A DNA stretch of 57,853 bases from an uncultured Gammaproteobacteria bacterium. Its GTDB lineage: Bacteria > Patescibacteriota > Microgenomatia > Levybacterales > UBA12049. Below, in pieces: positions 2,751-54,778 of this stretch (within the stretch, counting starts at the first letter, position 1; each line of letters starts with the position of its first letter). Position numbers and translations under genes: made by a program. The stretch is from NCBI GenBank assembly GCA_964565795.1, contig CAZMGC010000002.1:1-57853 (forward strand), in the 5' to 3' direction. The notes below the pieces were generated by a model that saw nothing but the letters and a program-made list of their open reading frames with translations, searched no databases and was not told the DNA's origin.

Positions 2751-2780
2751 TTGACTTATTAACTTATAGTGTGTTAAAAT
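2751..2780 (+). promoter_or_regulatory. sigma70-type promoter, -10 close to start codon
   Basis: TTGACT (2751-2756), 18-nt spacer with TGn, TAAAAT (2775-2780), then 9 nt to ATG 2790. Confidence 0.55.
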
Positions 2781-2789
2781 CCCCGCACA

Positions 2790-3239
2790 ATGAATAATAA
2801 TGAAAATATTGAACTTAATTATTGGGGAGAAGGTTTTCAAAATATCTACACAAAACCTGATCCAAATAAAAGAACCATAAAGCAGAAGCTCGCAATCGTT
2901 ATTTCATTTATATCAGTTCTCGCTATTTTACCCACAACAATTTTTGCGATTACAAATTTTAATCCTGTTAATGACCAAAAACTTACGGCAAGAGTAACTA
3001 ATTTTGAACCAACGCAAGCAGTAAGCGAAATACCAACTCCTACTACAACACCACGAGTTAAGGACGTAGTTGTTAAAGGAATCGAATCTAATAAAGTAAA
3101 AGTTATTAATAATGATAGCTATTGGAAAATATCTAAAAGAACTTGCGGAACTGGTAAATATTATCTTTCGATAAAAGAAAAGAATGATAATAAAGCGCTT
3201 TATAAAGACGACTTTGTAATCGTAGATTGCAGTCTATAG
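2790..3239 (+). CDS. hypothetical membrane-anchored protein with LysM-like C-terminal segment
   Basis: One hydrophobic helix (LAIVISFISVLAILPTTIFAI). The C-terminus SYWKISKRTCGTGKYYLSIKEKN resembles LysM. No closer family recognised. Confidence 0.6.
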   Translation: MNNNENIELNYWGEGFQNIYTKPDPNKRTIKQKLAIVISFISVLAILPTTIFAITNFNPVNDQKLTARVTNFEPTQAVSEIPTPTTTPRVKDVVVKGIESNKVKVINNDSYWKISKRTCGTGKYYLSIKEKNDNKALYKDDFVIVDCSL

Positions 3240-3254
3240 TTAGCTTGTCTCCAC

Positions 3255-3284
3255 TTGACAAACCCCTAAGATAGTATTTAGATA
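3255..3284 (+). promoter_or_regulatory. sigma70-type promoter, -10 close to start codon
   Basis: TTGACA (3255-3260), 18-nt spacer, TAGATA (3279-3284), then 9 nt to ATG 3294. Confidence 0.5.
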
Positions 3285-3293
3285 TATATATCC

Positions 3294-4073
3294 ATGGAAA
3301 AAAGAGGAGTTGACCTTATTGGTGCCATTGTCGTTTTTTTTGTACTTCTGTTTGTCTATACGAAATTCATAGGACCTATTCCATTTGCAGTAAATAATGT
3401 AAACACAGCCACAACTGATGTTTTTCAAGCAACTGGTACTGGAAAGGCCTCCTCGGCCCCAGATCAAGCAGTAATTAACTTGGGAGTTACTTCTCAAGGG
3501 ACTTCTGTAGAGCAAGCACAAAACCAAGCAAATGAAGCCTCCAAGAGAATTATAAATGCCCTTAAAGAACAGGGAATTGAAGAAGATAATATTAAAACCA
3601 CAAATTATTCCATAAATCCTAACTATAGCTTTACAGGAGATAATCAAAGAATAACCGGATATACAGTTTCTCAAAATTTCGAAGTTGAATTACCAATCGG
3701 AAAAACAAATCAGGTAGTTGATACTTCTACTAAAGCAGGTGCAAATATGGTTGGGAGCATTTCATTTAAGCTAAATGACAAAAAGCAAAACGAATTAAAA
3801 AATGAAGCGAGAAAAGAAGCAGTAGAAATGGCAAAAAAATCTGCTGAAGGACTTGCAGACGCATCCGGAATAAAACTTGGGAAAATCATAAATGTGACAG
3901 AATCCACAGGAATGATAGGTATGCCTATGCCATTTACTGTAGCTGCAAAAGCAGTAGACTCAGCCCAAGGCGGAGACGTCTTAATTCAAAATCCAGAGGG
4001 GGAAGTCAGCAATATTACTCCAGGCGAAAGCAATGTTGAAGTAACTGTAATTCTTACTTATCAAACTAATTAA
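3294..4073 (+). CDS. SIMPL/DUF541 (YggE-like) periplasmic protein
   Basis: N-terminal anchor, then the pattern ...AVINLGVTSQG.SVEQAQNQANEASKRIINALKEQGIEEDNIKTTNYSINP... and ITPGE..VEVTV, typical of the SIMPL family. Confidence 0.75.
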   Translation: MEKRGVDLIGAIVVFFVLLFVYTKFIGPIPFAVNNVNTATTDVFQATGTGKASSAPDQAVINLGVTSQGTSVEQAQNQANEASKRIINALKEQGIEEDNIKTTNYSINPNYSFTGDNQRITGYTVSQNFEVELPIGKTNQVVDTSTKAGANMVGSISFKLNDKKQNELKNEARKEAVEMAKKSAEGLADASGIKLGKIINVTESTGMIGMPMPFTVAAKAVDSAQGGDVLIQNPEGEVSNITPGESNVEVTVILTYQTN

Positions 4074-5401: not shown

Positions 5402-5430
5402 TTGTATAGTCAAGAGAGATAGATTATAAT
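5402..5430 (+). promoter_or_regulatory. sigma70-type promoter driving a leaderless start
   Basis: TTGTAT, 17 nt, TATAAT (5425-5430), then 8 nt to ATG 5439. No Shine-Dalgarno. Confidence 0.55.
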
Positions 5431-5438
5431 GGCAGCTT

Positions 5439-5846
5439 ATGTTTATAGAATTAGCGATTGCTATTGATCAGAAAAACAACACAAAACCATTAACCGAAAA
5501 AATTGTTAAAAAAGTTGCAGCAAGTCTAACAAATCTAGACGATGACCCAAGAGGAAGATCACTAACGATGCTTGGGGTAAAACTAGGAAGTATTCCGGTA
5601 CTAGAAGAAGGTGTAATTACTCATCACGAACATGTAACCAGATATGTTTACTTCTTCGAATCTTCAAGTCGCTTGGATCCTCTACAAGTTACAGGTGTGG
5701 CGATAGATGGAAGAACAATCACTGAATATACATATAGACGAGAACAGCCAGAATCACATACCATGAGGAACATCTCACTATCTAGAGCTTGGGAATTATT
5801 TAGTGAAGTTGACAAAAGAGTTCCGGTTCAATTTCCAGCTGTTTGA
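5439..5846 (+). CDS. hypothetical protein (135 aa), G+C-richer accessory gene
   Basis: Long ORF with its own promoter. No family recognised. Confidence 0.6.
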   Translation: MFIELAIAIDQKNNTKPLTEKIVKKVAASLTNLDDDPRGRSLTMLGVKLGSIPVLEEGVITHHEHVTRYVYFFESSSRLDPLQVTGVAIDGRTITEYTYRREQPESHTMRNISLSRAWELFSEVDKRVPVQFPAV

Positions 5847-5871
5847 AATAAGATCCTTTGGATGATATAAA
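5843..5871 (+). promoter_or_regulatory. sigma70-type promoter (extended -10) driving a leaderless start
   Basis: TTGAAA (5843-5848, overlapping the upstream TGA stop), 17 nt ending in TGa, TATAAA (5866-5871), then 6 nt to ATG 5878. Confidence 0.6.
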
Positions 5872-5877
5872 TTAATC

Positions 5878-6651
5878 ATGCCAGAAGGAATACATAGACG
5901 AGATATTAGACCGTCACAAGGTGCATTTAGATCAGTCGATCAGGTAAACTCTAACAACCCTAGACTACAGCAAGCAAGAAGAATAACCTCATCTAAAGAC
6001 CACGGTTCAAACGTGCGTCACAGAATAAGAAATATTGCTCTAGCATTAGGAATAATAGCAGGTGGTGGAAGCGGAATCGCACACATTGTTGACGAGGTTA
6101 ACAAACCCCCCGCAGAAACACTTCAGAACTATCAAAACCTAATTACTCAAATCGACATGAACAAATATCTAGTTGAGATCCACAAAGATGGCGAAAAAGA
6201 TTTAGTAGTACGACATGATCCTTACATACCAGACTTTGATGATAGACAAGAAGGCAGAGACAATTATATTGAGATGAATGACATAGTCTCAATAAATGGT
6301 ACCCCTTGGGATGGCAAAGCTCCATTTATTATTGAAAACACTCCGGTTGTAATAGCCACTGATCCAACCTCTGGAATTCTTACTGCACCCTGGTTTGCTG
6401 TTGAATTAGAACACAAAAGCCCTCTGGGAGATATCACTAAAACAGTTGGTTTTATGAGCCATAGTGCTGCTACAGACTCCCACATCACACCTCTTGAATC
6501 TGATGGTGGTATGGTAAATGCTCGGTTCGAAAATGGGCAAATTGTGGGAAAAAATGAATCTGGAGATACAGTGGTGCCTAATGATAAAATAGGCTTAGCA
6601 TCTATCGCAACACACACTTTAACTACTCAGGTTGGAAACCCACAATCTTAA
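5878..6651 (+). CDS. hypothetical membrane-anchored protein (257 aa)
   Basis: Basic N-terminus, then one TM helix (IRNIALALGIIAGGGSGIAHIV). The C-terminal tail IATHTLTTQVGNPQS is shared with ORFs 41695-41982 and 39980-40762. Confidence 0.65.
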   Translation: MPEGIHRRDIRPSQGAFRSVDQVNSNNPRLQQARRITSSKDHGSNVRHRIRNIALALGIIAGGGSGIAHIVDEVNKPPAETLQNYQNLITQIDMNKYLVEIHKDGEKDLVVRHDPYIPDFDDRQEGRDNYIEMNDIVSINGTPWDGKAPFIIENTPVVIATDPTSGILTAPWFAVELEHKSPLGDITKTVGFMSHSAATDSHITPLESDGGMVNARFENGQIVGKNESGDTVVPNDKIGLASIATHTLTTQVGNPQS

Positions 6652-6658: not shown

Positions 6659-6687
6659 TTGACATATTCTCGGCCTATAGTTATAAT
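6659..6687 (+). promoter_or_regulatory. consensus sigma70 promoter driving a leaderless start
   Basis: TTGACA, 17 nt, TATAAT, then 8 nt to ATG 6696. Confidence 0.7.
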
Positions 6688-6695
6688 AAGCGCCT

Positions 6696-7157
6696 ATGTC
6701 AGACAGATTAAAACACGCACCTGAATCAGCTATTAGATTCGCTGTTAGTCATCCAAGAGCAACTAGACTAGGTGCGCTTGCACTCTCCGCTGCGCTTGCT
6801 ACAACAGCTGTGACACCTGAAGGCCAAAATCCACTAACAAGAATCAAAATTGGAAGTAATGATCCAGAAATAATGACTCAACTTGAAGAAAACGATGGGG
6901 CTTTTCTCAGAGGCAGACCTAACTCTAACAGTGCACCAGTTGCAAGGGCCCCTATAGGAGAAGCTTTCACTGTAATAGGGCTCGTAGAAGATGGCAGATG
7001 GGTTAAAGTTAAACTAGACCCTAAGGAAAACATTCCAGACATTGATATGAATTATGGATTACTACCTAAAAATGATAAAGGAATTACAATAATTCCTAAG
7101 GAAGTTTATATTAAAAGACCTCTTGTAAAGGAAGTCTTCCCTAAACCTAAGAAATAA
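6696..7157 (+). CDS. hypothetical exported protein with SH3b-like segment (153 aa)
   Basis: Signal/anchor-like ATRLGALALSAALATTAVT. GRPNSNSAPVARAPIGEAFTVIGLVEDGRWVKVKL resembles a bacterial SH3 domain. Confidence 0.6.
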   Translation: MSDRLKHAPESAIRFAVSHPRATRLGALALSAALATTAVTPEGQNPLTRIKIGSNDPEIMTQLEENDGAFLRGRPNSNSAPVARAPIGEAFTVIGLVEDGRWVKVKLDPKENIPDIDMNYGLLPKNDKGITIIPKEVYIKRPLVKEVFPKPKK

Positions 7158-38946: not shown

Positions 38947-38956
38947 CCCACGCATT

Positions 38957-39595: not shown

Positions 39596-39940
39596 TTAGA
39601 ATACTCTTTTAATATGGCTTGGAAAAGATTCAGCAAGCATTGCATTACTTTCATCTATGATTGCTTGTGCCTCGTTAACAGAAAGATCAGCTTGCTTTGC
39701 AGCATCCTCTATGGAATATGCTCCCATCATTCTCCACATAGCTGCCGCATTTTGTAAAGGCAAATGTGCTAGCGTATGAATAAGAGCTCTTCTATAAATT
39801 GCTCCAGTATTTTCATAATCTATCCTAGCTTTATCAATTTTCCTTTGTCTTTGAATATCTATTGGAATGACAGATGAATCAGTTGGCTCTGGCACAAAAG
39901 GTGGCAAAATTTTTAAGTGGTCTGGTCTAGGCCTTTCCAT
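39596..39940 (-). CDS. small sigma70-region-4-like HTH protein (114 aa), paralog of 41346-41651
   Basis: Starts MERPRPDHLKILPP. HLPLQNAAAMWRMMGAYSIEDAAKQADLSVNEAQAIIDESNAMLAESF resembles ECF sigma region 4.2. Confidence 0.6.
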   Translation of the reverse strand: MERPRPDHLKILPPFVPEPTDSSVIPIDIQRQRKIDKARIDYENTGAIYRRALIHTLAHLPLQNAAAMWRMMGAYSIEDAAKQADLSVNEAQAIIDESNAMLAESFPSHIKRVF

Positions 39941-39947
39941 CTCGAGA

Positions 39948-39977
39948 ATATTATTTCACTTTTTATTTCGAAGTCAA
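39948..39977 (-). promoter_or_regulatory. sigma70 promoter driving a leaderless start
   Basis: TTGACT-TCGAAATAAAAAGTGAAA-TAATAT, then 7 nt to the ATG. It is nearly identical to the promoter at 41659-41688. Confidence 0.6.
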
Positions 39978-40816: not shown

Positions 40817-40844
40817 TTGATTAAAATTCACAAAGATATATAAT
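40817..40844 (+). promoter_or_regulatory. sigma70 promoter driving a leaderless start
   Basis: TTGATT, 16 nt, TATAAT (40839-40844), then 7 nt to ATG 40852. Confidence 0.55.
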
Positions 40845-40851
40845 GCCGATC

Positions 40852-41325
40852 ATGGAATCAAGATTCGCTAAAAGAATGGGATATCAAGAAGCAAGACCAG
40901 TGCCTGACATAACAATTGTTAGAAGCTATGTGCCGGCAGATGCTGTAACTAGACTTGGTGCAGAAGTGGAAAGACTTAGAGCTGCTGAATCTAACCCTAC
41001 GGATGATGTAAATCTTCAAATGTATTCAGCTCTTACAGAAAATCTCAGACAAAGAAAACCAATTATGATTGCTCCTGTAGTAGTTGAAGAAACTGTTTAT
41101 CCAATAGTCGTAGTTCTTACTTTTGGAAATCGTGAAGGAACTGGCAGTGCCGAATCATCATTTGGCGTAATGGTAGAAGATGGGGAAGTATTAATAGATC
41201 ACTTATTTAATGGTGATGATCATCAAGGCTCTCCAGAATTAAGAGATGAATACGTAGGAAAATTAAAAGAACATTTAAAGCAGGGTCATAGACTTACATT
41301 TTTTCCTCCACGCCTTCTAACCTAA
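40852..41325 (+). CDS. hypothetical protein (157 aa), G+C-richer
   Basis: The start is placed at MESRF. The track's ATG 40843 lies inside the -10 box. Confidence 0.6.
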   Translation: MESRFAKRMGYQEARPVPDITIVRSYVPADAVTRLGAEVERLRAAESNPTDDVNLQMYSALTENLRQRKPIMIAPVVVEETVYPIVVVLTFGNREGTGSAESSFGVMVEDGEVLIDHLFNGDDHQGSPELRDEYVGKLKEHLKQGHRLTFFPPRLLT

Positions 41326-41345: not shown

Positions 41346-41651
41346 TCAAGATTTTTTATGCTTAGGAAAAATTTGGCTGTATGTGGGAAAATCTTCCAAG
41401 AGCCTCGTTTTTCCAGCTACAAAGCTATCCCTGAAAACTTCTTCAGACATTCCACTTCTTTTTATAGCATCGTCTACAGATTCAGCACCGGTTGCAGACC
41501 ACATCGCATTCGCCTGATCTAGTGTCAATCTTGAAAAAGCCTTTATTCTTAATCTATATAAAAAAGCTTCTGATCTCTCTTCTCTAGTCATGGGTCTTCT
41601 ATTTTTTACTTCAAGTGGAGGGAGTAGCGTTAAGTGTTTCGGTCTTTCCAT
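41346..41651 (-). CDS. small sigma70-region-4-like HTH protein (101 aa), paralog of 39596-39940
   Basis: Starts MERPKHLTLLPP. LTLDQANAMWSATGAESVDDAIKRSGMSEEVFRDSFVAGKTRLLEDF aligns with the paralog and with sigma region 4.2. Confidence 0.6.
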   Translation of the reverse strand: MERPKHLTLLPPLEVKNRRPMTREERSEAFLYRLRIKAFSRLTLDQANAMWSATGAESVDDAIKRSGMSEEVFRDSFVAGKTRLLEDFPTYSQIFPKHKKS

Positions 41652-41658
41652 TTCGTGT

Positions 41659-41688
41659 GTATTATTTCACTTTCTGCTTCGAAGTCAA
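41659..41688 (-). promoter_or_regulatory. sigma70 promoter driving a leaderless start
   Basis: TTGACT-TCGAAGCAGAAAGTGAAA-TAATAC, then 7 nt to ATG 41651. Confidence 0.6.
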
Positions 41689-41694: not shown

Positions 41695-41982
41695 TTATCC
41701 TTGTGGGTTTTGTGACTGAGTTGTTAGGATTCTTCTGGCGATTGTCCCTCCACCAACACTCATTAATCCTCTTGAATCACCAATTAACACTTGAGGATTA
41801 TTAATTTGTGCAGTAGGTCTTATGTCAACAATTGAGGTTCGGACTCTTCTGTGATTCCCTCCTGCTTGAAAAAATACATCTACTTGATCACCTGGCTGCA
41901 ATTCTCTTACCTTAGTATAGGGTCCCCTTCTTCTGCCATCAAACCCAAGTGATTCTATTGAAATTCCATATCGTTTTTCCAT
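41695..41982 (-). CDS. hypothetical small protein (95 aa)
   Basis: Its C-terminal tail IARRILTTQSQNPQG is shared with ORF 5878-6651. Confidence 0.6.
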   Translation of the reverse strand: MEKRYGISIESLGFDGRRRGPYTKVRELQPGDQVDVFFQAGGNHRRVRTSIVDIRPTAQINNPQVLIGDSRGLMSVGGGTIARRILTTQSQNPQG

Positions 41983-41990
41983 GGCTATGA

Positions 41991-42018
41991 ATTATACATC
42001 CTTTTGCTTAGGTGTCAA
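41991..42018 (-). promoter_or_regulatory. consensus sigma70 promoter driving a leaderless start
   Basis: TTGACA-CCTAAGCAAAAGGATG-TATAAT, then 8 nt to ATG 41982. Confidence 0.65.
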
Positions 42019-42024: not shown

Positions 42025-42435
42025 TTAAAAATTTCGGGGGTCTTCTTGCGGATCTGATCTTCTCTGTATTGGCCTTAAATCCATAACTGATCTATCGTTA
42101 AAAACTGTAATATCATATGGAGTTTGGGATCTTGGTGTATTTGGGTCAAATTCTCGCCCCTCTGAATAATTAATTCTGGTGTGTAGTCCTCTCTGTTCTG
42201 CAAAATCCATTAATCTTTTTCCTACAGCCATAATCATCACGCTTCCAAGTAAAGGAAGTGAAACACCAGGATCATCTATTCTTCTATCTGCATAGTCTAG
42301 AACAAATGAAATTCCATAATTTACAAAAGCAGCTGCGCCCACAGTTAAAAGAGTGGCGCCGGCTCCTTTAACCATATCCGATGAAGGTTCTTTAGCTAGA
42401 TCTTTTGATAATGTAGTTACTTCTACTTTCGACAT
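42025..42435 (-). CDS. hypothetical membrane protein (136 aa)
   Basis: Two hydrophobic segments: GATLLTVGAAAFVNYGISFVL and LPLLGSVMIMAVG. Confidence 0.6.
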   Translation of the reverse strand: MSKVEVTTLSKDLAKEPSSDMVKGAGATLLTVGAAAFVNYGISFVLDYADRRIDDPGVSLPLLGSVMIMAVGKRLMDFAEQRGLHTRINYSEGREFDPNTPRSQTPYDITVFNDRSVMDLRPIQRRSDPQEDPRNF

Positions 42436-42441
42436 GAGCGT

Positions 42442-42470
42442 AATCTACTCCTCTTTTATTTTAAAGTCAA
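42442..42470 (-). promoter_or_regulatory. sigma70 promoter driving a leaderless start
   Basis: TTGACT, 17 nt, TAGATT, then 6 nt to ATG 42435. Confidence 0.6.
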
Positions 42471-42510
42471 GAATGGAAGAATTTATATTCTAAAATGCTA
42501 GAATTAATAA

Positions 42511-42732
42511 ATGAAATTATCTGTAGTCGCTCATCCAAATGCTAAAAAAGAAAAAATTGAAGAAGATCTTTTGGGCACACTCCATGTATATGTAAATGAG
42601 CCTCCGCTTAATGGACGCGCAAATTCTGCAATCATAAATTCGCTTTCAAAACACTTTAAAATAAAACGATCAAATGTGATTTTAATTAGCGGCGAAAAAT
42701 CCAAGAATAAAGTATTTGAAATAATAAATTAA
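42511..42732 (+). CDS. DUF167 (YggU-like) protein
   Basis: KLSVVAHPNAKKEKI...HVYVNEPPLNGRANSAIINSLSKHFKIKRSNVILISGEKSKNK is typical DUF167. It has AT-rich native composition. Extended -10 TGcTAGAAT lies 6 nt from the ATG. Confidence 0.8.
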   Translation: MKLSVVAHPNAKKEKIEEDLLGTLHVYVNEPPLNGRANSAIINSLSKHFKIKRSNVILISGEKSKNKVFEIIN

Positions 42733-42735: not shown

Positions 42736-43146
42736 TTACTTCGCGCGCATGCGATTGTTGCGGGGATTATGCTCTAATTCCACCAATCCCAAAGCTTCCA
42801 TAAGAGGAGGCATATACATCCCAAATCTTCCACGAAGTCCTTTTTTTAGTCCGTACCATCCACCGATAGGATTTTTGGGAGACCTAGCCCAAGCTTCCAC
42901 GGTCCCCTCTTTAGCTTCCTTTTGCTCATCTGCACTCCCGAGCTCCATCCAATCTCCATGTTTTTTTAGCATTTCATGAAGATCTTTTATAGCACGAAGA
43001 TCATAACTAAGAGTTGTGGATCCAACTACGCAAACAATCGCAGGCGGATTAAGACTTTCATCTTTATACATGGTGTATTCGCTAGTTCCAGGAGGGGTTT
43101 TTAATTTCCAGGGATTTTCTCGAGTTCCAAGATTTTTATCAGACAT
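42736..43146 (-). CDS. conserved hypothetical protein (136 aa)
   Basis: The blocks ENPWKLKTPPGTSEYTM, GDWMELGSADEQK and GGWYGLKKGLRGRFG...EHNPRNNRMRA look like a widely conserved uncharacterised family. This is from recollection, with no name assigned. Confidence 0.65.
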   Translation of the reverse strand: MSDKNLGTRENPWKLKTPPGTSEYTMYKDESLNPPAIVCVVGSTTLSYDLRAIKDLHEMLKKHGDWMELGSADEQKEAKEGTVEAWARSPKNPIGGWYGLKKGLRGRFGMYMPPLMEALGLVELEHNPRNNRMRAK

Positions 43147-43153
43147 ATCTGTT

Positions 43154-43182
43154 AATCTACATTTCTTTTACTTAAGTGTCAA
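43154..43182 (-). promoter_or_regulatory. consensus sigma70 promoter driving a leaderless start
   Basis: TTGACA, 17 nt, TAGATT, then 7 nt to ATG 43146. Confidence 0.6.
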
Positions 43183-43184: not shown

Positions 43185-43466
43185 TTAATTTATAGATTTA
43201 TCTGCAGGTGGTGGGACTGGATTTTGACGAAGAAGATCAAGCTCCTCCCCTAATGGTCTTGTGTCTGGTGTTATTTCTCCAGCTTGCGCAAGTCTTGCCA
43301 TCTCCTCCATCATTCTTATTGCTCCCCTTACGGCATTTCCGTCTCCAAGCAATCTTAAATCTCCCTGCGTAAATCCACCCTTTAGCCTAATAATCTTAAT
43401 AGGTTTTCGTGGTGAATCGAGAGGTTCGTCTGGATTTTTTGGTACTTCTTGTTCTTTTCCTGCCAT
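43185..43466 (-). CDS. hypothetical small protein (93 aa)
   Basis: ORF with its own promoter. No family recognised. Confidence 0.55.
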   Translation of the reverse strand: MAGKEQEVPKNPDEPLDSPRKPIKIIRLKGGFTQGDLRLLGDGNAVRGAIRMMEEMARLAQAGEITPDTRPLGEELDLLRQNPVPPPADKSIN

Positions 43467-43475
43467 ACACGAGGG

Positions 43476-43503
43476 ATTATATTCTTTTAGTTTATGCTGT
43501 CAA
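43476..43503 (-). promoter_or_regulatory. consensus sigma70 promoter driving a near-leaderless start
   Basis: TTGACA, 16 nt, TATAAT, then 9 nt to ATG 43466. Confidence 0.6.
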
Positions 43504-43509: not shown

Positions 43510-44025
43510 TTATTTTCCAAAAGTAGCTGTCACTGCTGTCGGCTGTGGAATTCCAAAGTGAGCAAGAGTTCCCCTGTTTTGTCCTTCATGATGCGCTTCA
43601 TGCGCTCTCATATCCTGAAGAACTGAAAAACCTGATAGACCTGGCTCTGAATATGGAATATCTACTCTTCTACCCCAATTCGCAGGATTTCTAAAGACTC
43701 TTTCAAGTCCCGCTGTTCCGCCGTCAAATAAAGCCAGTAATTCTTCTCGGGAAAGCGCTGAAAGATCAGGTAGTGCTTCTCTTTCTTCAGTTTCAAATGC
43801 TCTCAATCTAACATCTGCGTGTTTTACCTGATGCTCAAGATAAACTCTTTGAGATGCGATATCTACTCCTACAGCTTCACCGAATTGTGCTTCTGTTGTA
43901 ACTGAATAAGCTACTTTATTCGCTCTACGTAAAATTAAAAGCATGTCTACGGATCTATCTATTTCATCTACTAAGGCTTCTGGAATAAGTACTTGCTCAT
44001 GATGTGAACCTGCTTCTGCTGTCAT
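43510..44025 (-). CDS. DinB/YfiT-like (DinB_2) putative metalloenzyme
   Basis: A helical bundle with His ligands. The C-terminal HEAHHEGQ motif is typical of the DinB superfamily. Confidence 0.65.
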   Translation of the reverse strand: MTAEAGSHHEQVLIPEALVDEIDRSVDMLLILRRANKVAYSVTTEAQFGEAVGVDIASQRVYLEHQVKHADVRLRAFETEEREALPDLSALSREELLALFDGGTAGLERVFRNPANWGRRVDIPYSEPGLSGFSVLQDMRAHEAHHEGQNRGTLAHFGIPQPTAVTATFGK

Positions 44026-44031
44026 GCCATA

Positions 44032-44059
44032 ATTATAAGCTCTTTAACCTCGAAGTCAA
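44032..44059 (-). promoter_or_regulatory. consensus sigma70 promoter driving a leaderless start
   Basis: TTGACT, 16 nt, TATAAT, then 6 nt to ATG 44025. Confidence 0.65.
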
Positions 44060-44073: not shown

Positions 44074-44102
44074 TTGACAGGAATAATTAAAAGTAGTATA
44101 AA
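44074..44102 (+). promoter_or_regulatory. consensus sigma70 promoter driving a leaderless start
   Basis: TTGACA, 17 nt, TATAAA, then 8 nt to ATG 44111. It is back-to-back with the 44032-44059 promoter. Confidence 0.65.
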
Positions 44103-44110
44103 AATCCACT

Positions 44111-44734
44111 ATGGTAGATTTAGAGCCCAGAAGAAAACGTGGTAAAGAAAAAGATCCTGTAAATTGGCTCGCTATTGATGAAGCTATTGTTTTAAAGCTT
44201 GCTGAACCAGATCCAGAAGATCCAGATAAGAGAAGATATCCAGAGATTGATCAAGCTTTAGCTGAAGCAGTTATCGATGGCGTGGACAAATCGGGACTAT
44301 CAGAAGCTCACATAGAACGGATAAGGGATGGGATGCTTAAAAGAATAATCGACGCAAAAGCACTAACTTTAGCTAGAATTAACAACTATCGGTATTTAAC
44401 CACAAATGTAGAAAGGGCGAGAATGGATGCCTTTCTAGCAACTCTCCGCGACTTAAATCCTGCGACATCATTTGAATCTATGTCTGACTATGCAGCTCTA
44501 TTTACTCAGGAAGTAGCTCGCCCTGTACAACAGGATTCTCAAGTTACATACATAGACCCTACCGCTCCTCCAAAATTTGATCCTGATAGACCCATCGCAC
44601 CTGGTAATTTTTTAGATCATGTTCTCGGAAAAGAAGTGCAAAGATACATCGGGGATCCTCCAAAACCTACTGGAGCCAAAGTGTATTCAAGTCCCCTTCC
44701 AAACAACCATAGAGTTATGGGAAGTAAATATTAA
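44111..44734 (+). CDS. hypothetical protein (207 aa), G+C-richer
   Basis: Long ORF. No family recognised. Confidence 0.6.
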   Translation: MVDLEPRRKRGKEKDPVNWLAIDEAIVLKLAEPDPEDPDKRRYPEIDQALAEAVIDGVDKSGLSEAHIERIRDGMLKRIIDAKALTLARINNYRYLTTNVERARMDAFLATLRDLNPATSFESMSDYAALFTQEVARPVQQDSQVTYIDPTAPPKFDPDRPIAPGNFLDHVLGKEVQRYIGDPPKPTGAKVYSSPLPNNHRVMGSKY

Positions 44735-44763: not shown

Positions 44764-44934
44764 TCAGAGGCTAAGCATCTTCATCACTTCGTAAACAAAA
44801 ACTCCTGGCCAAAATAATGCCTTAATAAGACCCCATACTGTTTCCTGAAATCCAGATGTTACCTGAATATAATAAATCGCGGCTCCTATTATTCCAGTGC
44901 AATAAATTGCGGAGAGACCTGCATTATCTTTCAT
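44764..44934 (-). CDS. small membrane protein (56 aa), not in ORF track
   Basis: A strong SD TAAGGAGGTG lies 6 nt upstream of the ATG. Translation is MKDNAGLSAIYCTGIIGAAIYYIQVTSGFQETVWGLIKALFWPGVFVYEVMKMLSL, with two hydrophobic helices. Confidence 0.6.
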   Translation of the reverse strand: MKDNAGLSAIYCTGIIGAAIYYIQVTSGFQETVWGLIKALFWPGVFVYEVMKMLSL

Positions 44935-44962
44935 AATTCTCACCTCCTTAAAAAATCTTGAA

Positions 44963-45451
44963 CTATAAACTTAATTTTACGAAACCTAAATTTCCGGGAT
45001 TTGCCGCTGCTTTAATTTTTCCACTATCATCATTCATCTCATTACTCAGTATAACTCTTGTTGGATGCTCTCCGGGTGATTCTAAAATACTGTAAATGGG
45101 ATTTACATAAGATGTCCTAATTCCCCCGTTCGTCATTAGAAATAGTTCATTTGCTACAAACCCAGAAAAACCTGTAATTCTATCATTCACAGAGCCATTT
45201 TTAGTTAAAATCAAATCGATTTTTTCTCCGACCACCTGCCCATCCAAAAATGAATCAACGACTTGTCCTAAAAGTAATGCCTCCTGGCCACCGAATAAAA
45301 CTCTGGTTCTACTATTTACATCTGGTAAAATTCCTAAAATTTCAGCTACTACTTGTCTTTGGTCAGGGGTCAGAAGTCTAGCAATTCTTTCATGCTTTGC
45401 CATTTCAGCTTCCCTTACCATAAATCTTCTATAAGCTTCGTTGAAAACCAC
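44963..45451 (-). CDS. hypothetical protein (162 aa; GTG start as listed, ATG 45421 possible)
   Basis: Long ORF. The promoter is positioned for the GTG start. Confidence 0.55.
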   Translation of the reverse strand: MVFNEAYRRFMVREAEMAKHERIARLLTPDQRQVVAEILGILPDVNSRTRVLFGGQEALLLGQVVDSFLDGQVVGEKIDLILTKNGSVNDRITGFSGFVANELFLMTNGGIRTSYVNPIYSILESPGEHPTRVILSNEMNDDSGKIKAAANPGNLGFVKLSL

Positions 45452-45459
45452 TAAGATTC

Positions 45460-45488
45460 AAAATACTCCTTAAATTAATCCAAGTCAA
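45460..45488 (-). promoter_or_regulatory. sigma70 promoter
   Basis: TTGACT, 17 nt, TATTTT, then 8 nt to GTG 45451. Confidence 0.5.
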
Positions 45489-45501: not shown

Positions 45502-46068
45502 TTATGCGGATCTTAAAAATTGCCTAACATCTTGGTTAAGAGGCCCAATAAAGCTTTTTATAGTATCAGCAGTTCTTGGAGCTAAGGCTCCCGGTATTTT
45601 ATCTCTATCCATTCTGGAAATATCAGGGTACGCAGCTAAAGCTTTTTCGTGCATATTTAATGCTTCGCTTAATCCCATCCAAGCAATTCTATCATGCTCG
45701 TTTGGAGCTGCATTTACCGGATTAAGTCCCGTCGCATCTAGTAAAAAGGATCTTATATTTATCTCCCGACTATGAATTTTTCCTCCATGTATTTCAGATA
45801 AAACAGATGCTGAATCCTTTACATGTAATAGATCACTCCTCTTAATTACAATCCCCAATTCTTCCCATGCTTCTCTTCTTGCGGTGTCTATTAGCGCTTC
45901 TCCTTTTTCTCGCATTCCACCAAAAAAAGCCCACTGATCCCTAAAAGAACTTGTATTGCGATGTCCCAGTAAAACTTCAAGCTCTATTTCCCCAGCTCTT
46001 ACTGGAATTACTTGAGACCCCACTAAAATCACTCTTCTCATTTCTGGAGTTTTTAATCTTTCAGACAT
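45502..46068 (-). CDS. Nudix hydrolase, G+C-richer
   Basis: The Nudix box is GGMREKGEALIDTARREAWEELG. The start is placed at MSERLK (46068), because the listed ATG 46080 lies inside the -10 hexamer. Confidence 0.8.
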   Translation of the reverse strand: MSERLKTPEMRRVILVGSQVIPVRAGEIELEVLLGHRNTSSFRDQWAFFGGMREKGEALIDTARREAWEELGIVIKRSDLLHVKDSASVLSEIHGGKIHSREINIRSFLLDATGLNPVNAAPNEHDRIAWMGLSEALNMHEKALAAYPDISRMDRDKIPGALAPRTADTIKSFIGPLNQDVRQFLRSA

Positions 46069-46077
46069 AGAACTGTT

Positions 46078-46106
46078 CATTATCCCAGCTTTTTAAAATG
46101 TGTCAA
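46078..46106 (-). promoter_or_regulatory. sigma70 promoter
   Basis: TTGACA, 17 nt, ATAATG, then 9 nt to ATG 46068. Confidence 0.55.
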
Positions 46107-46136: not shown

Positions 46137-46165
46137 TTGACAATGAATACTCACCCAAATAGAAT
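46137..46165 (+). promoter_or_regulatory. consensus sigma70 promoter
   Basis: TTGACA, 17 nt, TAGAAT, then 24 nt to ATG 46190. Confidence 0.55.
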
Positions 46166-46189
46166 CTCTTTACCTCTGCTCGTAAACCT

Positions 46190-47440
46190 ATGAAACCGAT
46201 TACACCTTTTGGCTTACCTATTGGAATAAGTGTAACTATATGGACACTTGTTGGATTAATTAGATTTTTATCAGAAAAACTAATTAAACCAAAAAAGACG
46301 AAAAAGAAAAATAGATTTAAACCCGAGGACATCGCGGTAGTCATCCCTGCGCATAATGAGGAAATAATAATTAGAAAATGCGTAAAAGCAGTTAAAGTTT
46401 TTTTACCTGCGAATCAAATATATGTTATTTCGGATGGATCTACAGATAAAACTTACAGTAATGCGAAAAAAGAAAAATGTCATGTTGCAAAGTTAAAACC
46501 AGGACGAGGAAAAGCAAGAGCCTTAAAATACTTATTTAAAGAATACAGATTATTTGAAAGATACAAATTAATTTTAATAGTTGATGCAGATACGAAAATG
46601 GATAAAGACACACTTAAGTTTGCTTTGCCTATGTTTAATGATAAAGATATAAAAGTTGTTTTTGCTAGTTCGCAAATAAAATGGCCAAAACATATAATGC
46701 CTCGAAGAAAATTATATTATGTTGCATATAGGGATAGACTAAATAGACTTCTCCAGTATTGTTTTGTGTATGGACAAACTTGGAAATACACAAATGTTAA
46801 CTACGTAATTCCAGGATTTGCAACCATGTATAGATCAGATGCATTAAAAAAACTTGAGATTGATACACCAGGTTTACTAATCGAAGATTTTAACTTAGCT
46901 TTTCAATTTCACAAAAAAAAGTTAGGGAAAATTGGCTATGAGCCAAGAATGATCGGTTGGGATCAATACCCCGAATCATTCGTAGATTACTGGAAACAAG
47001 TAAGACGCTGGAATATAGGTTTTTTCCAAACAGTTAAAAAAAATAAAATTTGGCCAAGTATGTTCTGGGTTGCACTAGGAATTTTTTCATTAGAGATATT
47101 ACTCCACTCTTTATTCCTATTAATCTTGCCGTTAGTGCTATTATCAACCCTTTCGAATTTTATAAATATCGGACCTTTTTCAGGAATGATAAATATTTAT
47201 GAGTCTTTACCTTTTTATGAAAGCTACTCTATTTTTGATCTTTTCATAAGTATCTTTTTTATAGATTATATATTTACAATAATCATTGGTATCTGGAACA
47301 GAAAACCGCAGTATTTAATTTATGGTTTCTTTTTTATTTTTATGCACTATGCAACGTCCCTTATCCTCTTGTCTTCAATCTATCCAGGGTTCTTTGGAAA
47401 TTCGAGTGGAAAATGGATATCACCAAAAAGACAGGCTTAA
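46190..47440 (+). CDS. membrane-embedded processive family-2 glycosyltransferase
   Basis: VVIPAHNEE, ISDGSTDKT and VDADT are present, along with the Q(V)RRW motif (KQVRRWNIG). TM helices flank the catalytic domain, as in chitin, PNAG and cellulose synthases. Confidence 0.8.
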   Translation: MKPITPFGLPIGISVTIWTLVGLIRFLSEKLIKPKKTKKKNRFKPEDIAVVIPAHNEEIIIRKCVKAVKVFLPANQIYVISDGSTDKTYSNAKKEKCHVAKLKPGRGKARALKYLFKEYRLFERYKLILIVDADTKMDKDTLKFALPMFNDKDIKVVFASSQIKWPKHIMPRRKLYYVAYRDRLNRLLQYCFVYGQTWKYTNVNYVIPGFATMYRSDALKKLEIDTPGLLIEDFNLAFQFHKKKLGKIGYEPRMIGWDQYPESFVDYWKQVRRWNIGFFQTVKKNKIWPSMFWVALGIFSLEILLHSLFLLILPLVLLSTLSNFINIGPFSGMINIYESLPFYESYSIFDLFISIFFIDYIFTIIIGIWNRKPQYLIYGFFFIFMHYATSLILLSSIYPGFFGNSSGKWISPKRQA

Positions 47441-51887: not shown

Positions 51888-52385
51888 TTAAGAACTAGCT
51901 TGAGCTTGTGCCTTAATTTCTTCAAGAGCCGTATTAAATCCAATTGGAGTTAAGCTTGAACCAGAGATTTTTCCAAGTTTTACCTCATCTATATTTTTTC
52001 CAACAACTTGTTCTTTATAGTTAGCGATGAAATCTTCTTGGATTTTCTTAGAGATTGGCGCTTTTGCTTGAGCAACTACATCCACATTTTCAATTACTCC
52101 ACCTTTAAGCGTAACAGTAACATCGATGGATTCTGTTCCTGAGTGATATGAATATTCTCCTACTGCTTCATATGTTCCATCTTTATAGTTTCCGGTCATT
52201 GCACCCTGTTCACTTGTTTCCTGTATCGTTCCTGTTGTATCTTGAGGAGTTTCTACCACTGCTTGCTCTTTATTTTTGGATAGAACCAAACCACCAATTG
52301 CAACTGCTGCGATAATAATAACCACCGCAATTCCAACCATAATCATGTTTTTGTTCATTCCAGTTTTTTGTGTTTCTTCTTCCAT
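51888..52385 (-). CDS. membrane-anchored FMN-binding-domain protein
   Basis: SD GGAGGTGA, a TM anchor, then GTYEAVGEY...GG.IENVDV and ISGSSLTPIGFNTAL (FMN_bind-like, flavinylation Thr/Ser context). Confidence 0.7.
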   Translation of the reverse strand: MEEETQKTGMNKNMIMVGIAVVIIIAAVAIGGLVLSKNKEQAVVETPQDTTGTIQETSEQGAMTGNYKDGTYEAVGEYSYHSGTESIDVTVTLKGGVIENVDVVAQAKAPISKKIQEDFIANYKEQVVGKNIDEVKLGKISGSSLTPIGFNTALEEIKAQAQASS

Positions 52386-52454
52386 TTACTCACCTCCAAT
52401 CTATAATTCAAGTTTATTTTATAATTTAATATCCGTTGAATTATAACAAATAAT

Positions 52455-53558
52455 TTAAAGATATTTATTGTAAAATTCAATTGTTTTCTCCATCGCCTCG
52501 GTAAAGGAAGAACCAGTAAAATTATGACCCCCACTCTGATATTCGATTAATTCATGAGGAATTGAAGTTTTATCCAAAATGTTATTCAAATTTCTACTAT
52601 ATCCAATATTTACCACGGGGTCATCAACTGTATGATTTAAGGAAATTGCACCGGTTATTCCATCTAAATAATTTGTGAAAGGAACTTGCTTCCAGAAGGG
52701 ATGATTTGGGTCAAACTGCCCATACATATCACTCAAACGTTGACGTCTATTTCTATTTATATTCTGATCAGACGGAGGACGGTAACTGTTATCATCAATT
52801 CCGTATTTTTGCATGTCTGAATATGTATAGACTGCTCCACCCCAAATCGCAATCGCAGAAATATCAGGTTGTGCTGCTAAGGCGCGCGTTATTACATTTC
52901 CTGCCATAGAATGTCCCCAAAGCCCAACTTTCTCGGGATTTACAAAATTTGAAACTTGAAGCGCTGCTCTAGCATTCAAAGTATCAACTATATAATCAGA
53001 GCCATAATACCCTCCACCCGCTTCCCCGTCACTTTCTCCATGCCCTCTTAAATCAATTTTAAAAACCACAAAGCCATTTCTCGCTAGATAATCTACGTAG
53101 GCGCTATAATTTCCTGTTGTCGTGTATGTAGAAGGAGGAATATAACCATGAACAAAAACGATAGCTGGCCACCCCCCTGCTGGTGCTTCTCCGCTAGGAA
53201 TCGTTAGTAAACCATTAATTTTAAATCCATCTGAATCATAAGAAGTTAAATAACTTGTGTAATTAGAATTCGTGGAATACTGTTCGCGTTCATTTAATTT
53301 ACTTTTATATTCTCTTGCACGAAGCGAAGGAATTGTCATTTCTGAAAATGGATATGGAGTTGGCGTTGGATTAACTGAAGAGGTTATATTGGAAATTTTA
53401 GATGCTGAATCTCCTTTTGAAAGAACAAAATAAAGTCCTCCAAAAACGAAAGCATTAAATCCTATTAAAGCTGCTAATAGAAGAATTATCTTCTTTCTCT
53501 TTTCGGTTGGTGTCAAACCTGGATCATTTGATACCTGAGGTGGCACTTTGTTTTCCAT
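52455..53558 (-). CDS. alpha/beta hydrolase (S9/dienelactone-hydrolase-like), membrane-anchored
   Basis: The nucleophile elbow is GLWGHSMAGN. Extended -10 TGgTATAAT (53567-53575) lies 8 nt from the ATG. Confidence 0.75.
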   Translation of the reverse strand: MENKVPPQVSNDPGLTPTEKRKKIILLLAALIGFNAFVFGGLYFVLSKGDSASKISNITSSVNPTPTPYPFSEMTIPSLRAREYKSKLNEREQYSTNSNYTSYLTSYDSDGFKINGLLTIPSGEAPAGGWPAIVFVHGYIPPSTYTTTGNYSAYVDYLARNGFVVFKIDLRGHGESDGEAGGGYYGSDYIVDTLNARAALQVSNFVNPEKVGLWGHSMAGNVITRALAAQPDISAIAIWGGAVYTYSDMQKYGIDDNSYRPPSDQNINRNRRQRLSDMYGQFDPNHPFWKQVPFTNYLDGITGAISLNHTVDDPVVNIGYSRNLNNILDKTSIPHELIEYQSGGHNFTGSSFTEAMEKTIEFYNKYL

Positions 53559-53605
53559 GAGTTAAAATTATACCAAAAAATCTAAGATATCTTTATTTAT
53601 TAAAA

Positions 53606-54760
53606 TTATTTATGGGATTTAAAAATTCTTAAGTAAACAAAAAAATTAAGAGATTGAAATATTTGAATTATTAAAAGAGCAACAACAGGTGATAATTTAT
53701 CTGCTACAAGTCCTACCAAAAATGCAACAATTCCAAAACATATACTTCCAAAGAATGAATCCAATGACCCCATCGTTGCTCTCTGTTCTTGCTTGAATTC
53801 TTTTTGCATAAGTGATGACTTTGCAACAACTGTAGTCCCATAAAAAAGTGACGTTGTTGACATTAAAACAGGAGTTAAAACTGAAGGAAAAATTGCCGGA
53901 ACAGTAGTTACAAATCTTGCCCATGCGTTCCCTGCTAGAAGCATTTTAAGCTCTCCAAATTTTTTAATTGTTCTACCACTAAAATGAAAACTAATTGCAG
54001 CACCAAAATAAGAAAATATCTTTGCGATTGGAATTGCCCAAGCTGGCCAAACAAGTGAATAAATCGCAGCTTGGAATTGAAACGATACCTCACCAAAGCC
54101 GTACCCTATAATCGAGGAGACACTTAAAAGCCTAAGTTTTGGATTATGTTTAAAAGCCAAAAGAGCTTCTTTTAAATGTAAATAAATATTCCCAGATTTA
54201 CTTGAGTGAACCTTGGGCTCAGTAAAAGCAAAAGAAAGAAAAAAACAGATTACTTGTGGTATTACAGAAAGCCAAACGAGTAGAGAAAAAGAACCCTTGA
54301 GTAAAAGTACAGCACCAATTATTGCCGAAAGACCAAGTGCGATTTGAGACATTTTACTAATCTTTCCATATAATTCTGCATATCTATGTTCTTCGTTATT
54401 TTCTGCTAAAGAGTCATGTATGAATGCGTCATTATTTCCACTGTAGAATGCATTGCAAAGCCCCATAAATATTGATCCAATCGCTAAAATCATGAATGAA
54501 CCCCCTATTGAATAAAAGATTGATGCAATTAATGCAAAAAATGATCCAAGTATTATAGTTTTATGTCTTCCAATTCTGTCAGAAAAAATTCCAGTTGGGA
54601 TTTCAAGAAAAGCTGAAGAAACAGTTATGATCGAGAATACGCTCATTCCAAGCGCATAAGAACCTGAAACCTGTGCAAAATAAAGTATTGCAATCGGAGC
54701 ATAGAATTTAAATTCCGTAAAAAAATTAAACCATGAAAAAAGATTTATATTCTTGTGCAT
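53606..54760 (-). CDS. MFS transporter
   Basis: About 12 TM helices with the GIFSDRIGRHK loop motif. TATAAT (54767-54772) lies 6 nt from the ATG. Confidence 0.8.
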   Translation of the reverse strand: MHKNINLFSWFNFFTEFKFYAPIAILYFAQVSGSYALGMSVFSIITVSSAFLEIPTGIFSDRIGRHKTIILGSFFALIASIFYSIGGSFMILAIGSIFMGLCNAFYSGNNDAFIHDSLAENNEEHRYAELYGKISKMSQIALGLSAIIGAVLLLKGSFSLLVWLSVIPQVICFFLSFAFTEPKVHSSKSGNIYLHLKEALLAFKHNPKLRLLSVSSIIGYGFGEVSFQFQAAIYSLVWPAWAIPIAKIFSYFGAAISFHFSGRTIKKFGELKMLLAGNAWARFVTTVPAIFPSVLTPVLMSTTSLFYGTTVVAKSSLMQKEFKQEQRATMGSLDSFFGSICFGIVAFLVGLVADKLSPVVALLIIQIFQSLNFFVYLRIFKSHK

Positions 54761-54778
54761 AGATGAATTATACTATTA

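Follow-up and report, generated by a model that had tools for sequence, protein, structure and literature searches.

Where does a messenger RNA begin when the DNA between genes is about as long as a promoter? This question is raised by contig CAZMGC010000002.1, a stretch of 57.8 kb (57,853 nucleotides, GC ~35%; hereafter the window), in which the intergenic spacers approximate one promoter length, ~38-50 nt between genes on the same strand and ~57-90 nt between divergent genes. Among species-representative genomes, the relatives of its YchF protein belong to metagenome-assembled genomes (MAGs) of Levyibacteriota, Microgenomates and Patescibacteria (identity 93% down to 52%), which places the source organism in the Levyibacteriota (Microgenomates, within the Patescibacteria or candidate phyla radiation, CPR). 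An earlier inspection of the letters, here called the sequence-only reading, had noticed about 29 start codons preceded by the -10 hexamer of a promoter at a distance of only 6-10 nt, as would be expected if the transcripts were leaderless. mRNAs of this kind are amply documented from Actinobacteria, Deinococcus-Thermus and archaea. We find that the start-proximal promoters of the window are real and far beyond chance, and that in about half of its transcription units the promoter is so close that the mRNA should begin at the start codon.

Promoters end a few nucleotides before start codons

The pattern can be seen by eye when the 60 nt upstream of every open reading frame (ORF) start are laid out, for example at position 6696 (aacTTGACAtattctcggcctatagtTATAATaagcgcctATG). 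For a scan blind to genes, every position of both strands was scored with -35 and -10 weight matrices derived from E. coli, allowing spacers of 15-19 nt, and hits were paired with any ATG or GTG within 100 nt that opens an ORF of 80 aa or longer. We denote by d the number of nucleotides that separate the end of the -10 hexamer from the start codon. Eighteen promoters scored 11 or more, 13 of them had an ORF start nearby, and in 10 of these 13 the distance was d = 6-9. Matches to TTGACA-N16-18-TATAAT at 11 or more of the 12 positions numbered 17, compared with 2.55 +/- 1.4 in dinucleotide shuffles, which served as the chance model, and perfect promoters numbered three, compared with 0.03. An independent consensus scanner applied to the region from 35 to 47 kb returned two promoters with 12/12 matches and five with 11/12; six of these belong to listed starts, and the remaining one ends at 46165, 24 nt from the start at 46190.

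In a second, start-anchored test, a -10 hexamer with a position weight matrix score of at least 4 was required at d = 6-9, and the frequency was compared with that at other offsets in these upstream regions, likewise taken in windows of 4 nt. Such a hexamer precedes 18 of 44 operon-first genes, whereas the other windows average 3.8 (p = 7e-9); among internal genes it precedes 3 of 23. The distribution of distances, which the sequence-only reading had put forward as a check, thus has in the window a spike at d = 6-9 and is not random. At in-frame internal ATGs the corresponding frequency is ~0.7% per offset. The identical pipeline was applied to 50 kb of each of two control replicons. In Bacillus anthracis pXO1 (33% GC), none of the top 20 promoters and one of the top 60 were at d = 6-9; for E. 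coli K-12 the count was 0 of 36.

Site by site, 24 of the 29 starts named earlier are strong (Table 1), four are weaker, having only a -10 or an extended -10 (24535, 35437, 54760 and 57664, the last of which had been graded as no more than probable and does score low), and one, 3294, is poor. The promoters had been described as TTGACA or TTGACT followed by a TATAAT-like hexamer, or as an extended TGn form, and this holds: at 16 of the 24 strong sites the -35 is TTGAC(A/T) (one TTGATT, one TTGAAA) at a spacing of 16-18 nt, and the remainder have TGnTATAAT or a perfect TATAAT. Four good sites, 38397, 28009, 33040 and 30921, had been missed, and there are perhaps others at 35392, 34304, 15697, 17695 and 50993. 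With curated starts for the 74 genes of the window, 30 genes were classified as leaderless-type (including 56649, which is more likely led by a Shine-Dalgarno (SD) sequence), eight as possibly leaderless and 10 as SD-led, while 26 have neither signal. In terms of first genes, 26-30 of 43 have a leaderless-type site; outside an island of orphan genes described below the numbers are 11-15 of 28.

The hexamers are parts of promoters

If these hexamers are promoter elements, one would expect other promoter elements beside them. We compared 99 start-proximal -10s, from the window and from 15 related MAG loci (L001-L015, with gene models that are simple longest-ORF calls), with 5,697 -10-like hexamers elsewhere. 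A correctly spaced -35 accompanies 36% of the former and 3.6% of the latter, and a TGn extension 37% and 5.4%, respectively; one or the other is present at 66% as opposed to 8.6% (odds ratio 20, p = 4e-43). In the related loci, 28 of 96 tightly spaced genes also have the signal, consistent with internal promoters. Genes with a start-proximal promoter seldom have an SD core (2/99, versus 33/215 of the others; p = 2e-4), and the earlier remark that no SD lies between -10 and start is borne out by this depletion as well as by the fact that none fits into 6-10 nt.

The start codons themselves appear well chosen. Each is the first ATG, GTG or TTG past the upstream in-frame stop; the Pfam models for L31, YchF, HisRS, HTH, DUF218, response regulator, DUF6855, DUF167 and NUDIX begin at residues 1-10; and public gene calls on other contigs have the same starts. 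Ambiguity persists at 35392/35368, at 18292/18286 and at 5164. For the gene called at 18292, a further site absent from the earlier list, the start is probably 18286 (TTGTCA-17-TAGGAT, then 6 nt), and rpsF perhaps begins at its second methionine (35368), the Pfam S6 model being matched only from residue 11 on.

Four gene starts had been corrected earlier by reference to promoters, and these corrections fared unevenly. That of 46080 to 46068 is backed by an orthologue, in L005, where GATAAT-8 nt-ATG is present and the position of 46080 lacks an ATG. Two others follow from promoter geometry only: the TATAAT of 40852 overlaps the ATG at 40843, and an extension of the 38957 gene to the TTG at 38894 would run through the TGgTATAAT located 10 nt upstream of 38957. 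Moving 14224 to 14179 is reasonable, since a gene starting at 14224 would overlap efp by 41 nt and one starting at 14179 begins 4 nt past its stop; this correction involves no promoter, and none was found at 14179.

Among leaderless-type genes, 89% of the start codons are ATG, and the base at -1 is a pyrimidine in 77%, compared with 58% elsewhere (p = 0.0015). The discriminators are rich in C and T, and purines account for only 24-39% of the bases between position 4 and the start; TAGCCTC and CCTC are frequent forms. A survey from 2025 found transcription start sites (TSSs) in 49 bacteria to be centred 7 bp downstream of the -10, and a Y-1R+1Y+2 "start" element to fix the TSS (PMC12641261). 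Y-ATG and Y-GTG are instances of Y-1R+1Y+2, and with a purine-poor discriminator the A or G of the start codon, at positions 7-10, becomes the favoured initiating nucleotide; we infer that it would often serve as such.

The discriminator TAGCCTC deserves a separate comment. It directly follows TATAAT in at least nine promoters of the window and its relatives, mostly leaderless ones (ychF, 38873 and others); the relatives with the motif are L001, L002, L004, L005, L011, L013, L021 and L101, the last being a locus of a further relative whose public gene calls were made independently. Three more copies of TAGCCTC lie in a gap devoid of ORFs (see below) and one in a promoter spacer of L101. The 9-mer TTAGCCTCA is present five times in the window (0.56 expected), at 7245, 7676 and 7982 (+) and at 37185-37177 and 38881-38873 (-). 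TAGCCTC may be preferred as a discriminator, or a protein may bind it.

The arrangement is conserved in relatives

In L001-L015, 26 of the 36 strong promoters with a nearby ORF are at d = 6-9, and 50 of 151 first genes have the signal (p = 2e-21). At orthologous starts a -10 at d = 5-10 is found in 55 of 70 cases for leaderless genes, compared with 4 of 46 for other genes. This is also seen where the 45 upstream nucleotides are less than 60% identical, the -10 being kept in 20/31 (leaderless) versus 2/17 (other genes). The most instructive case is ychF, for which 9 of 15 orthologues have TGnTA[TC]AAT 6-9 nt ahead of the ATG and two more have a TATAAT that lacks the TG, in upstream DNA that is otherwise unrelated. 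In L004 (~1542) and L005 (~10001) the same gene has AGGAG-6 nt-ATG instead of TGnTATAAT, so that orthologues of one gene appear from their upstream signals to switch between leaderless-type and SD-led initiation. For rpmE, the -10 is at d = 6-9 in six of six orthologues; orthologues of the exchanger gene at 30921 in L001-L004 have TA[AG]ACT at d = 6; and the 40762 gene (TTGACT-17-TATAAT, d = 8) has a single homologue among 5.8 billion proteins (L101 10001), which is preceded by TTGACT-16-TATAAT at d = 7. In L101 as a whole, 11 of 25 genes have this architecture and three have an SD of the AAGGAGGTGA type.

Genes with Shine-Dalgarno sequences and genes with neither signal

Strong SD sequences had been reported at 11483, 14744, 16219, 37458, 44934 and 52385, and all are present. 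They belong to few genes, several of them tiny (44-71 aa). Of 74 occurrences of GGAGG, 5 lie 3-11 nt before a start where 0.43 would be expected, a ~12-fold enrichment, and this enrichment together with the canonical AAGGAGGTGA form indicates that the anti-SD is presumably intact. The 3' end of 16S rRNA was found in none of 100 related loci, and from the AAGGAGGTGA consensus alone it would presumably read ...CACCUCCUU. Loss of the anti-SD is reported only for part of the Parcubacteria (PMC9297842).

The coexistence of two initiation modes, as proposed in the sequence-only reading, is therefore only part of the picture: leaderless-type and SD-led genes do occur side by side, but strong SDs are rare (~10/74) and a third class, the 26 genes with neither signal, has to be added. 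Fifteen of the 26 follow another gene of their own strand as internal cistrons at less than 35 nt, and the majority of these overlap the preceding stop or begin 0-9 nt from it. In the operon rpsF-ssb-rpsR (34326-35392), ssb and rpsR start 1 and 7 nt past the upstream stop and have no SD. Since such SD-less cistrons, ssb and rpsR included, abut stop codons, coupling by termination and reinitiation is suggested. A few first genes (46190, 9744 and 18402) have good promoters and leaders of 11-50 nt, again without an SD.

Probable leaderless transcripts and alternative explanations

We consider it likely that these are genuine sigma70/SigA-type promoters placed for leaderless mRNAs without an SD. 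RNA polymerase, guided by TTGAC(A/T), a spacer of 16-18 nt and TAtAAT, or by an extended TGnTAtAAT, would start at the A or G of the start codon or no more than ~3 nt upstream of it; the resulting mRNAs would have neither a 5' untranslated region nor an SD, and their 5'-terminal AUG would presumably be bound directly by the ribosome and initiator tRNA. Three regimes would then exist, namely leaderless initiation at most monocistronic or operon-first genes, SDs of the AAGGAGGTGA type at a minority, and initiation with no SD at internal cistrons whose start adjoins or overlaps the preceding stop codon. The sequence itself shows the architecture, its statistical excess, its conservation and its mutual exclusion with SDs; the position of the TSS and the mode of ribosome recruitment are deduced from it, and the sequence-level predictions that could be examined support them throughout: the distance is narrow, -35 or TGn elements are present, SDs are excluded, ATG and the pyrimidine-purine-pyrimidine context are preferred, the arrangement is conserved, and the controls do not have it.

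Several observations weigh against this interpretation. The modal spacing, d = 8, places the A of the ATG at the ninth nucleotide after the -10, slightly past the optimum of 7-8 nt, so that leaders of 0-3 nt are possible, or a start on an upstream purine (e.g. G8 at 43466). The orphan-gene island holds 15 of the 38 candidate sites and inflates the count, and in three of its promoters (38873, 42435 and 45451) a GGAG-like element lies 12-14 nt from the start. When the sample was widened to 80 metagenomic loci (DnaB identity 44-84%), the signal was found at 16-19% of first genes over a background of 5-8%, and 33 of the 142 strong promoters there had d = 6-9; given this weaker signal, the high density would be a property of the organism and its close relatives, in the regions sampled. 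Between 35 and 47 kb there are six terminator-like matches where shuffles lead one to expect eight, and with intrinsic terminators so scarce, polycistronic read-through RNAs are likely. When transcript-derived contigs containing rpmE or the 40762 gene were sought, only metagenomic contigs matched; the population is present in runs SRR12487045 and SRR11524805 and in assembly ERZ4201044.

The main rival explanation is that the promoters are real but that the genes are mainly expressed from longer read-through or upstream transcripts, by SD-independent internal initiation at AU-rich unstructured start regions or by reinitiation, with the proximity of promoter and start a by-product of extreme intergenic compaction rather than the mark of a dedicated leaderless system. 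The few terminators and the 38-50 nt spacers wholly filled by promoters fit this scenario, and SD-less initiation evidently occurs, in rpsF-ssb-rpsR, at 46190, 9744 and 18402, and among the 26 genes without signal. However, compaction alone should produce broad distances rather than a spike at 6-9 nt, and the promoters of 33040 and 54760, which overlap an upstream coding sequence, are still closely spaced (d = 9 and 6). The Y-ATG context, the purine-poor discriminators and the conserved spacing in orthologues further argue for selection on the relation between TSS and ATG, and we regard the read-through scenario, in both its internal-initiation and its reinitiation form, as unlikely. A different proposal, that the TATAAT-like hexamers are translation signals such as an AU-rich enhancer or standby site, comparable to those of the non-SD group B of Bacteroidota, derives some appeal from the frequency of AT-rich sequence upstream of starts in low-GC genomes and from the third or so of sites that have neither a recognisable -35 nor TGn. 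Yet the frequent co-occurrence of a -35 or TGn, on which we reject this proposal, the concentration of the signal at operon-first genes of the window and the lack of a peak in pXO1, a matched low-GC control, leave it very improbable. Least probable of all, to the point of being scarcely credible, is that chance or annotation underlies the pattern, i.e. that -10-like matches are everywhere, or that the real starts lie downstream behind an ordinary leader. A GC content of 35%, longest-ORF gene models in the related loci and some ambiguous starts could invite such an explanation, but the shuffles, the offset windows and the two control replicons contradict it, so that chance or AT-richness is rejected for the bulk of the sites, and the starts are bounded by upstream stops and Pfam boundaries and agree with independent public gene calls. 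It therefore appears that leaderless transcription, rather than any of these alternatives, best accounts for the placement of the promoters.

Table 1. Starts in the window with a nearby promoter or SD sequence. Class gives the standing of sites named by the sequence-only reading (strong, weaker, poor) or the reason for inclusion; numbers within promoter formulas are spacer lengths in nt.
Start	Gene or product	Coordinates	Strand	Class	Signal and remarks	Score
2790	149 aa, no Pfam match	2751..2792	+	strong	TTGACT-18-TGtTAAAAT, d = 9	12.8
3294	SIMPL/DUF541	3255..3296	+	poor, weakest listed site	perfect TTGACA; poor -10, TTAGAT (spacer 17, d = 10) or TAGATA (spacer 18, d = 9)	
5439		5425..5441	+	strong	TATAAT, d = 8; weak -35 TTGTAT	7.9
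5878		5843..5880	+	strong	TTGAAA-17-TGaTATAAA, d = 6; -10 without final T	7.5
6696	SH3 protein	6659..6698	+	strong	TTGACA-17-TATAAT, d = 8; best promoter of the window	14.3
24535	hisS	24520..24537	+	weaker (moderate)	TGcTATTAT, d = 6	6.2
26943	HTH regulator	26941..26980	-	strong	TTGACT-18-TATAAT, d = 7; Pfam HTH_31 from residue 4	12.0
28009	NUDIX	28007..28024	-	good, newly added	TGgTATAAT, d = 6; kept in L001, L002, L004; back to back with rpmE promoter	8.5
28067	rpmE (L31)	28054..28069	+	strong	TATAAT, d = 7; Pfam L31 model 1-63 = residues 1-63	
30921 (GTG)	Na+/H+ exchanger	30919..30957	-	good, newly added	TTGAAA-18-TAAACT, d = 6	8.6
33040	HtrA-like protease	33038..33079	-	good, newly added	TTGAAA-18-TGcTAAAAT, d = 9; within 3' end of S41 peptidase gene; kept in 6/7 orthologues	11.3
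35392	rpsF	35390..35427	-	uncertain, newly added	TTAACA-17-TAGCCT, d = 6	
35437	DUF218	35422..35439	+	weaker	TGtTAAGAT, d = 6; same arrangement in 4 orthologues	5.8
37177	ychF	37175..37222	-	strong	TGaTATAAT, d = 7; discriminator TAGCCTC	
37555	response regulator	37518..37557	+	strong	TTGACA-17-TATATT, d = 8; kept in 5 orthologues	12.8
38397	NUDIX	38395..38413	-	good, newly added	TGtTATAAT, d = 7	10.5
38873		38871..38908	-	strong	TTGACA-17-TAAATT, d = 6; discriminator AGCCTC	11.5
38957	replaces TTG 38894	38938..38959	+	strong	TGgTATAAT, d = 10; 2-3 nt leader likely	9.8
39940	paralogue of 41651	39938..39977	-	strong	TTGACT-16-TGaAATAAT, d = 9	10.5
40762	orphan, 260 aa	40760..40799	-	strong	TTGACT-17-TATAAT, d = 8	13.0
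40852	replaces 40843	40817..40854	+	strong	TTGATT-16-TATAAT, d = 7; -10 overlaps 40843 ATG	9.3
41651	paralogue of 39940	41649..41688	-	strong	TTGACT-16-TGaAATAAT, d = 9	
41982		41980..42018	-	strong	TTGACA-16-TATAAT (12/12), d = 8	13.3
42435		42433..42470	-	strong	TTGACT-17-TAGATT, d = 6; GAGGAG in spacer, 12 nt from ATG	11.1
42511	DUF167/YggU	42496..42513	+	strong	TGcTAGAAT, d = 6; Pfam from residue 2; same TGcTAGAAT, d = 6, in L101	
43146	DUF6855	43144..43182	-	strong	TTGACA-17-TAGATT, d = 7	12.4
43466		43464..43503	-	strong	TTGACA-16-TATAAT (12/12), d = 9; kept in L001	13.3
44025		44023..44059	-	strong	TTGACT-16-TATAAT, d = 6	12.0
44111		44074..44113	+	strong	TTGACA-17-TATAAA, d = 8; TTGACA..GTATAAA..ATG in L001, L002, L005	8.2
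45451 (GTG)		45449..45488	-	strong	TTGACT-17-TATTTT, d = 8; -35/-10 at d = 7-9 with ATG in L001, L002, L005	
46068	NUDIX; replaces 46080	46066..46106	-	strong	TTGACA-16-TGgGATAAT, d = 10	
53558	alpha/beta hydrolase	53556..53575	-	strong	TGgTATAAT, d = 8; same in L001, L011, L101	
54760	MFS transporter	54758..54772	-	weaker (moderate)	TATAAT, d = 6; -10 within 3' end of upstream gene (gap 18)	6.4
57664 (GTG)	HlyD-like	57662..57680	-	weaker (weak)	TGcTATTCT, d = 7	5.5
46190	glycosyltransferase	46137..46192	+	leadered, no SD	TTGACA-17-TAGAAT ends 24 nt before start	
11483	44 aa	11481..11496	-	SD-led	AGGAGG; duplex -14.5 kcal/mol	
23569	nucleoside hydrolase	23557..23571	+	SD-led, internal	AGGAGG; duplex -11.9 kcal/mol	
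37458	71 aa	37456..37472	-	SD-led	AGAGGAGGTGA; duplex -16.2 kcal/mol; SD kept in orthologues	
44934	56-aa membrane peptide	44932..44949	-	SD-led	AAGGAGGTGA 5 nt from ATG; duplex -15.4 kcal/mol	
52385		52383..52397	-	SD-led	GGAGGTGA; duplex -13.6 kcal/mol	

An island of orphan genes

The region 38600-46110 (39% GC) contains 18 small genes. Fourteen have no Pfam match; 15 are leaderless-type and each of these has its own promoter. The tetranucleotide AAAG or AAGG is found 3-6 nt upstream of the -10 in 14 of these 15 promoters and in 1 of 23 elsewhere (Fisher p = 2e-8, for a motif defined post hoc), which suggests a shared regulator or a promoter subtype. A prophage or plasmid origin was considered and rejected, there being no PHROG match and no phage match by tblastn; the island's only distant relative of phage or plasmid type is the DUF6855 protein (42736-43146), 61% identical to a Rhodococcus plasmid protein. 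An AGGAG in the promoter spacer upstream of 45451 was likewise examined as an SD and rejected, since in orthologues the -35/-10 is kept and AGGAG is not.

Other features of the window

The housekeeping genes of the window comprise the 3' part of gyrA, folD, xerC-like, yebC, efp, dnaB, hisS, rpmE, a release factor, murB, htrA/ctpA-like proteases, rpsF-ssb-rpsR, ychF and an ABC/HlyD exporter. Its one tRNA gene, tRNA-Leu(CAA) at 15745-15828 (region 15686-15828), is preceded by TTGAAG-17-TATAAT ending at 15714, from which a 5' leader of ~24 nt, to be processed, would follow; this promoter overlaps the start region of the divergent gene 15697. The only convincing terminator between 35 and 47 kb is a hairpin at 37222-37198 with an 11-bp stem, whose T-run enters the extended -10 of ychF (TGaTATAAT).

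The hisS gene (24535-25743) is one frame of ~400 codons interrupted by a single in-frame TAA at 25120-25122 (GKIG*EGV), and the ORF list divides it into parts of 195 and 115 aa. The TAA may be a nonsense mutation or an assembly or consensus error, or the gene may be a pseudogene of an essential gene.

Amid tightly packed genes, 981 nt at 7158-8138 (core 7208-7712, +) have no ORF of 40 aa or more. A search of this gap against Rfam gave no match at E <= 1. It is 67% identical over 862 nt to a sequence in L021, with patchy near-identical blocks, the flanking genes being 74% identical; RNAalifold predicts 79 pairs for the two sequences, and in 13 of these both partners have changed. A T-run (7704-7712) closes the conserved part, and the minimum free energy z-score of 7300-7680 is -2.0. 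These two sequences hint weakly at a candidate novel noncoding RNA of ~470 nt.

Finally, the third-party annotation (TPA) MAG records corresponding to L001-L004 and L009-L013 belong to Levyibacteriota/Microgenomates by YchF identity and synteny, yet are titled "uncultured Gammaproteobacteria/Pseudomonadales bacterium", probably an error of taxonomic labelling.

Comparison with known systems

In the full texts searched, which lie mostly outside the subscription journals, we found no description of leaderless mRNAs in CPR/Patescibacteria, Microgenomates, Parcubacteria or Saccharibacteria; texts that pair "leaderless" with CPR terms contain only passing mentions or reference lists. The single CPR species in the TSS survey, Nanosynbacter lyticus, has imprecise TSS data (PMC12641261). 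If confirmed, our observations would extend the leaderless-rich bacteria by a radiation that is large, branches deeply and has reduced ribosomes, and would bear on whether leaderless initiation is ancestral or favoured by a streamlined translation machinery. They would supply a rule for assigning starts in CPR MAGs, in which a -10 at 6-10 nt overrides the choice by longest ORF or by SD (46068, 40852 and 38957 are examples), and compact native expression signals, ~37 nt long from promoter to ATG, of use to the genetics now emerging for Patescibacteria. They would also document gene-by-gene switching between leaderless and SD-led initiation among orthologues (ychF in L004/L005). A bolder claim, tentative and in our view rather doubtful, is that leaderless initiation is the dominant mode throughout Levyibacteriota and close Microgenomates, serving more than half of transcription units, with intergenic DNA reduced to bare promoters so that each gene has a promoter of its own, the start element fused to the start codon (Y-ATG following a discriminator rich in C and T, such as TAGCCTC) and SDs confined to a handful of genes. 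Were it true, initiation in these ribosome-reduced organisms would be closer to that of haloarchaea than of any described bacterial group, and annotations of CPR MAGs made with SD-based gene finders would contain systematic start-codon errors.

Two other groups of genomes resemble the window in part. As in archaeal group D (haloarchaea, Sulfolobus), many first genes appear leaderless and internal genes have an SD or nothing, but group D has a TATA box ~26 nt upstream and a B recognition element (BRE), whereas here we see a bacterial -35 and -10 at bacterial spacing and no archaeal-type TATA peak beyond background near d ~20-26. As in group B (Bacteroidota/FCB), most genes have no SD; in group B, however, a single motif that is neither SD nor promoter precedes first and internal genes of leadered mRNAs, whereas here the motif is a promoter and the canonical AAGGAGGTGA SD is still used. 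The pyrimidine before ATG or GTG, giving YAT or YGT 7-10 nt after the -10, corresponds to the Y-1R+1Y+2 element (PMC12641261), which here is fused with the start codon.

The closest counterpart is group C of GeneMarkS-2, defined by a Pribnow box 6-8 nt from the starts of first genes and comprising 90% of Actinobacteria and 97% of Deinococcus-Thermus while being rare elsewhere (PMC6028130). As in its members Mycobacterium tuberculosis and D. deserti, the box is ~6-8 nt from operon-first genes, which have no SD, whereas other genes do (PMC6028130). In the ~58 kb plus flanks sampled, the leaderless-type fraction of first genes is locally higher, 26-30 of 43 (11-15 of 28 outside the island), than the 25-50% quoted for group C (PMC6028130). 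Further differences are that the host is a low-GC (35%) member of the Levyibacteriota/Microgenomates CPR rather than a high-GC bacterium, that SD usage is unusually low (~10/74 genes), and that, unlike the -10-only TANNNT promoters of mycobacteria, the promoters here have a near-perfect E. coli-like -35 plus -10 or a TGn-extended -10. Thus, what the window presents is a known architecture, of the group C type, in a new lineage.

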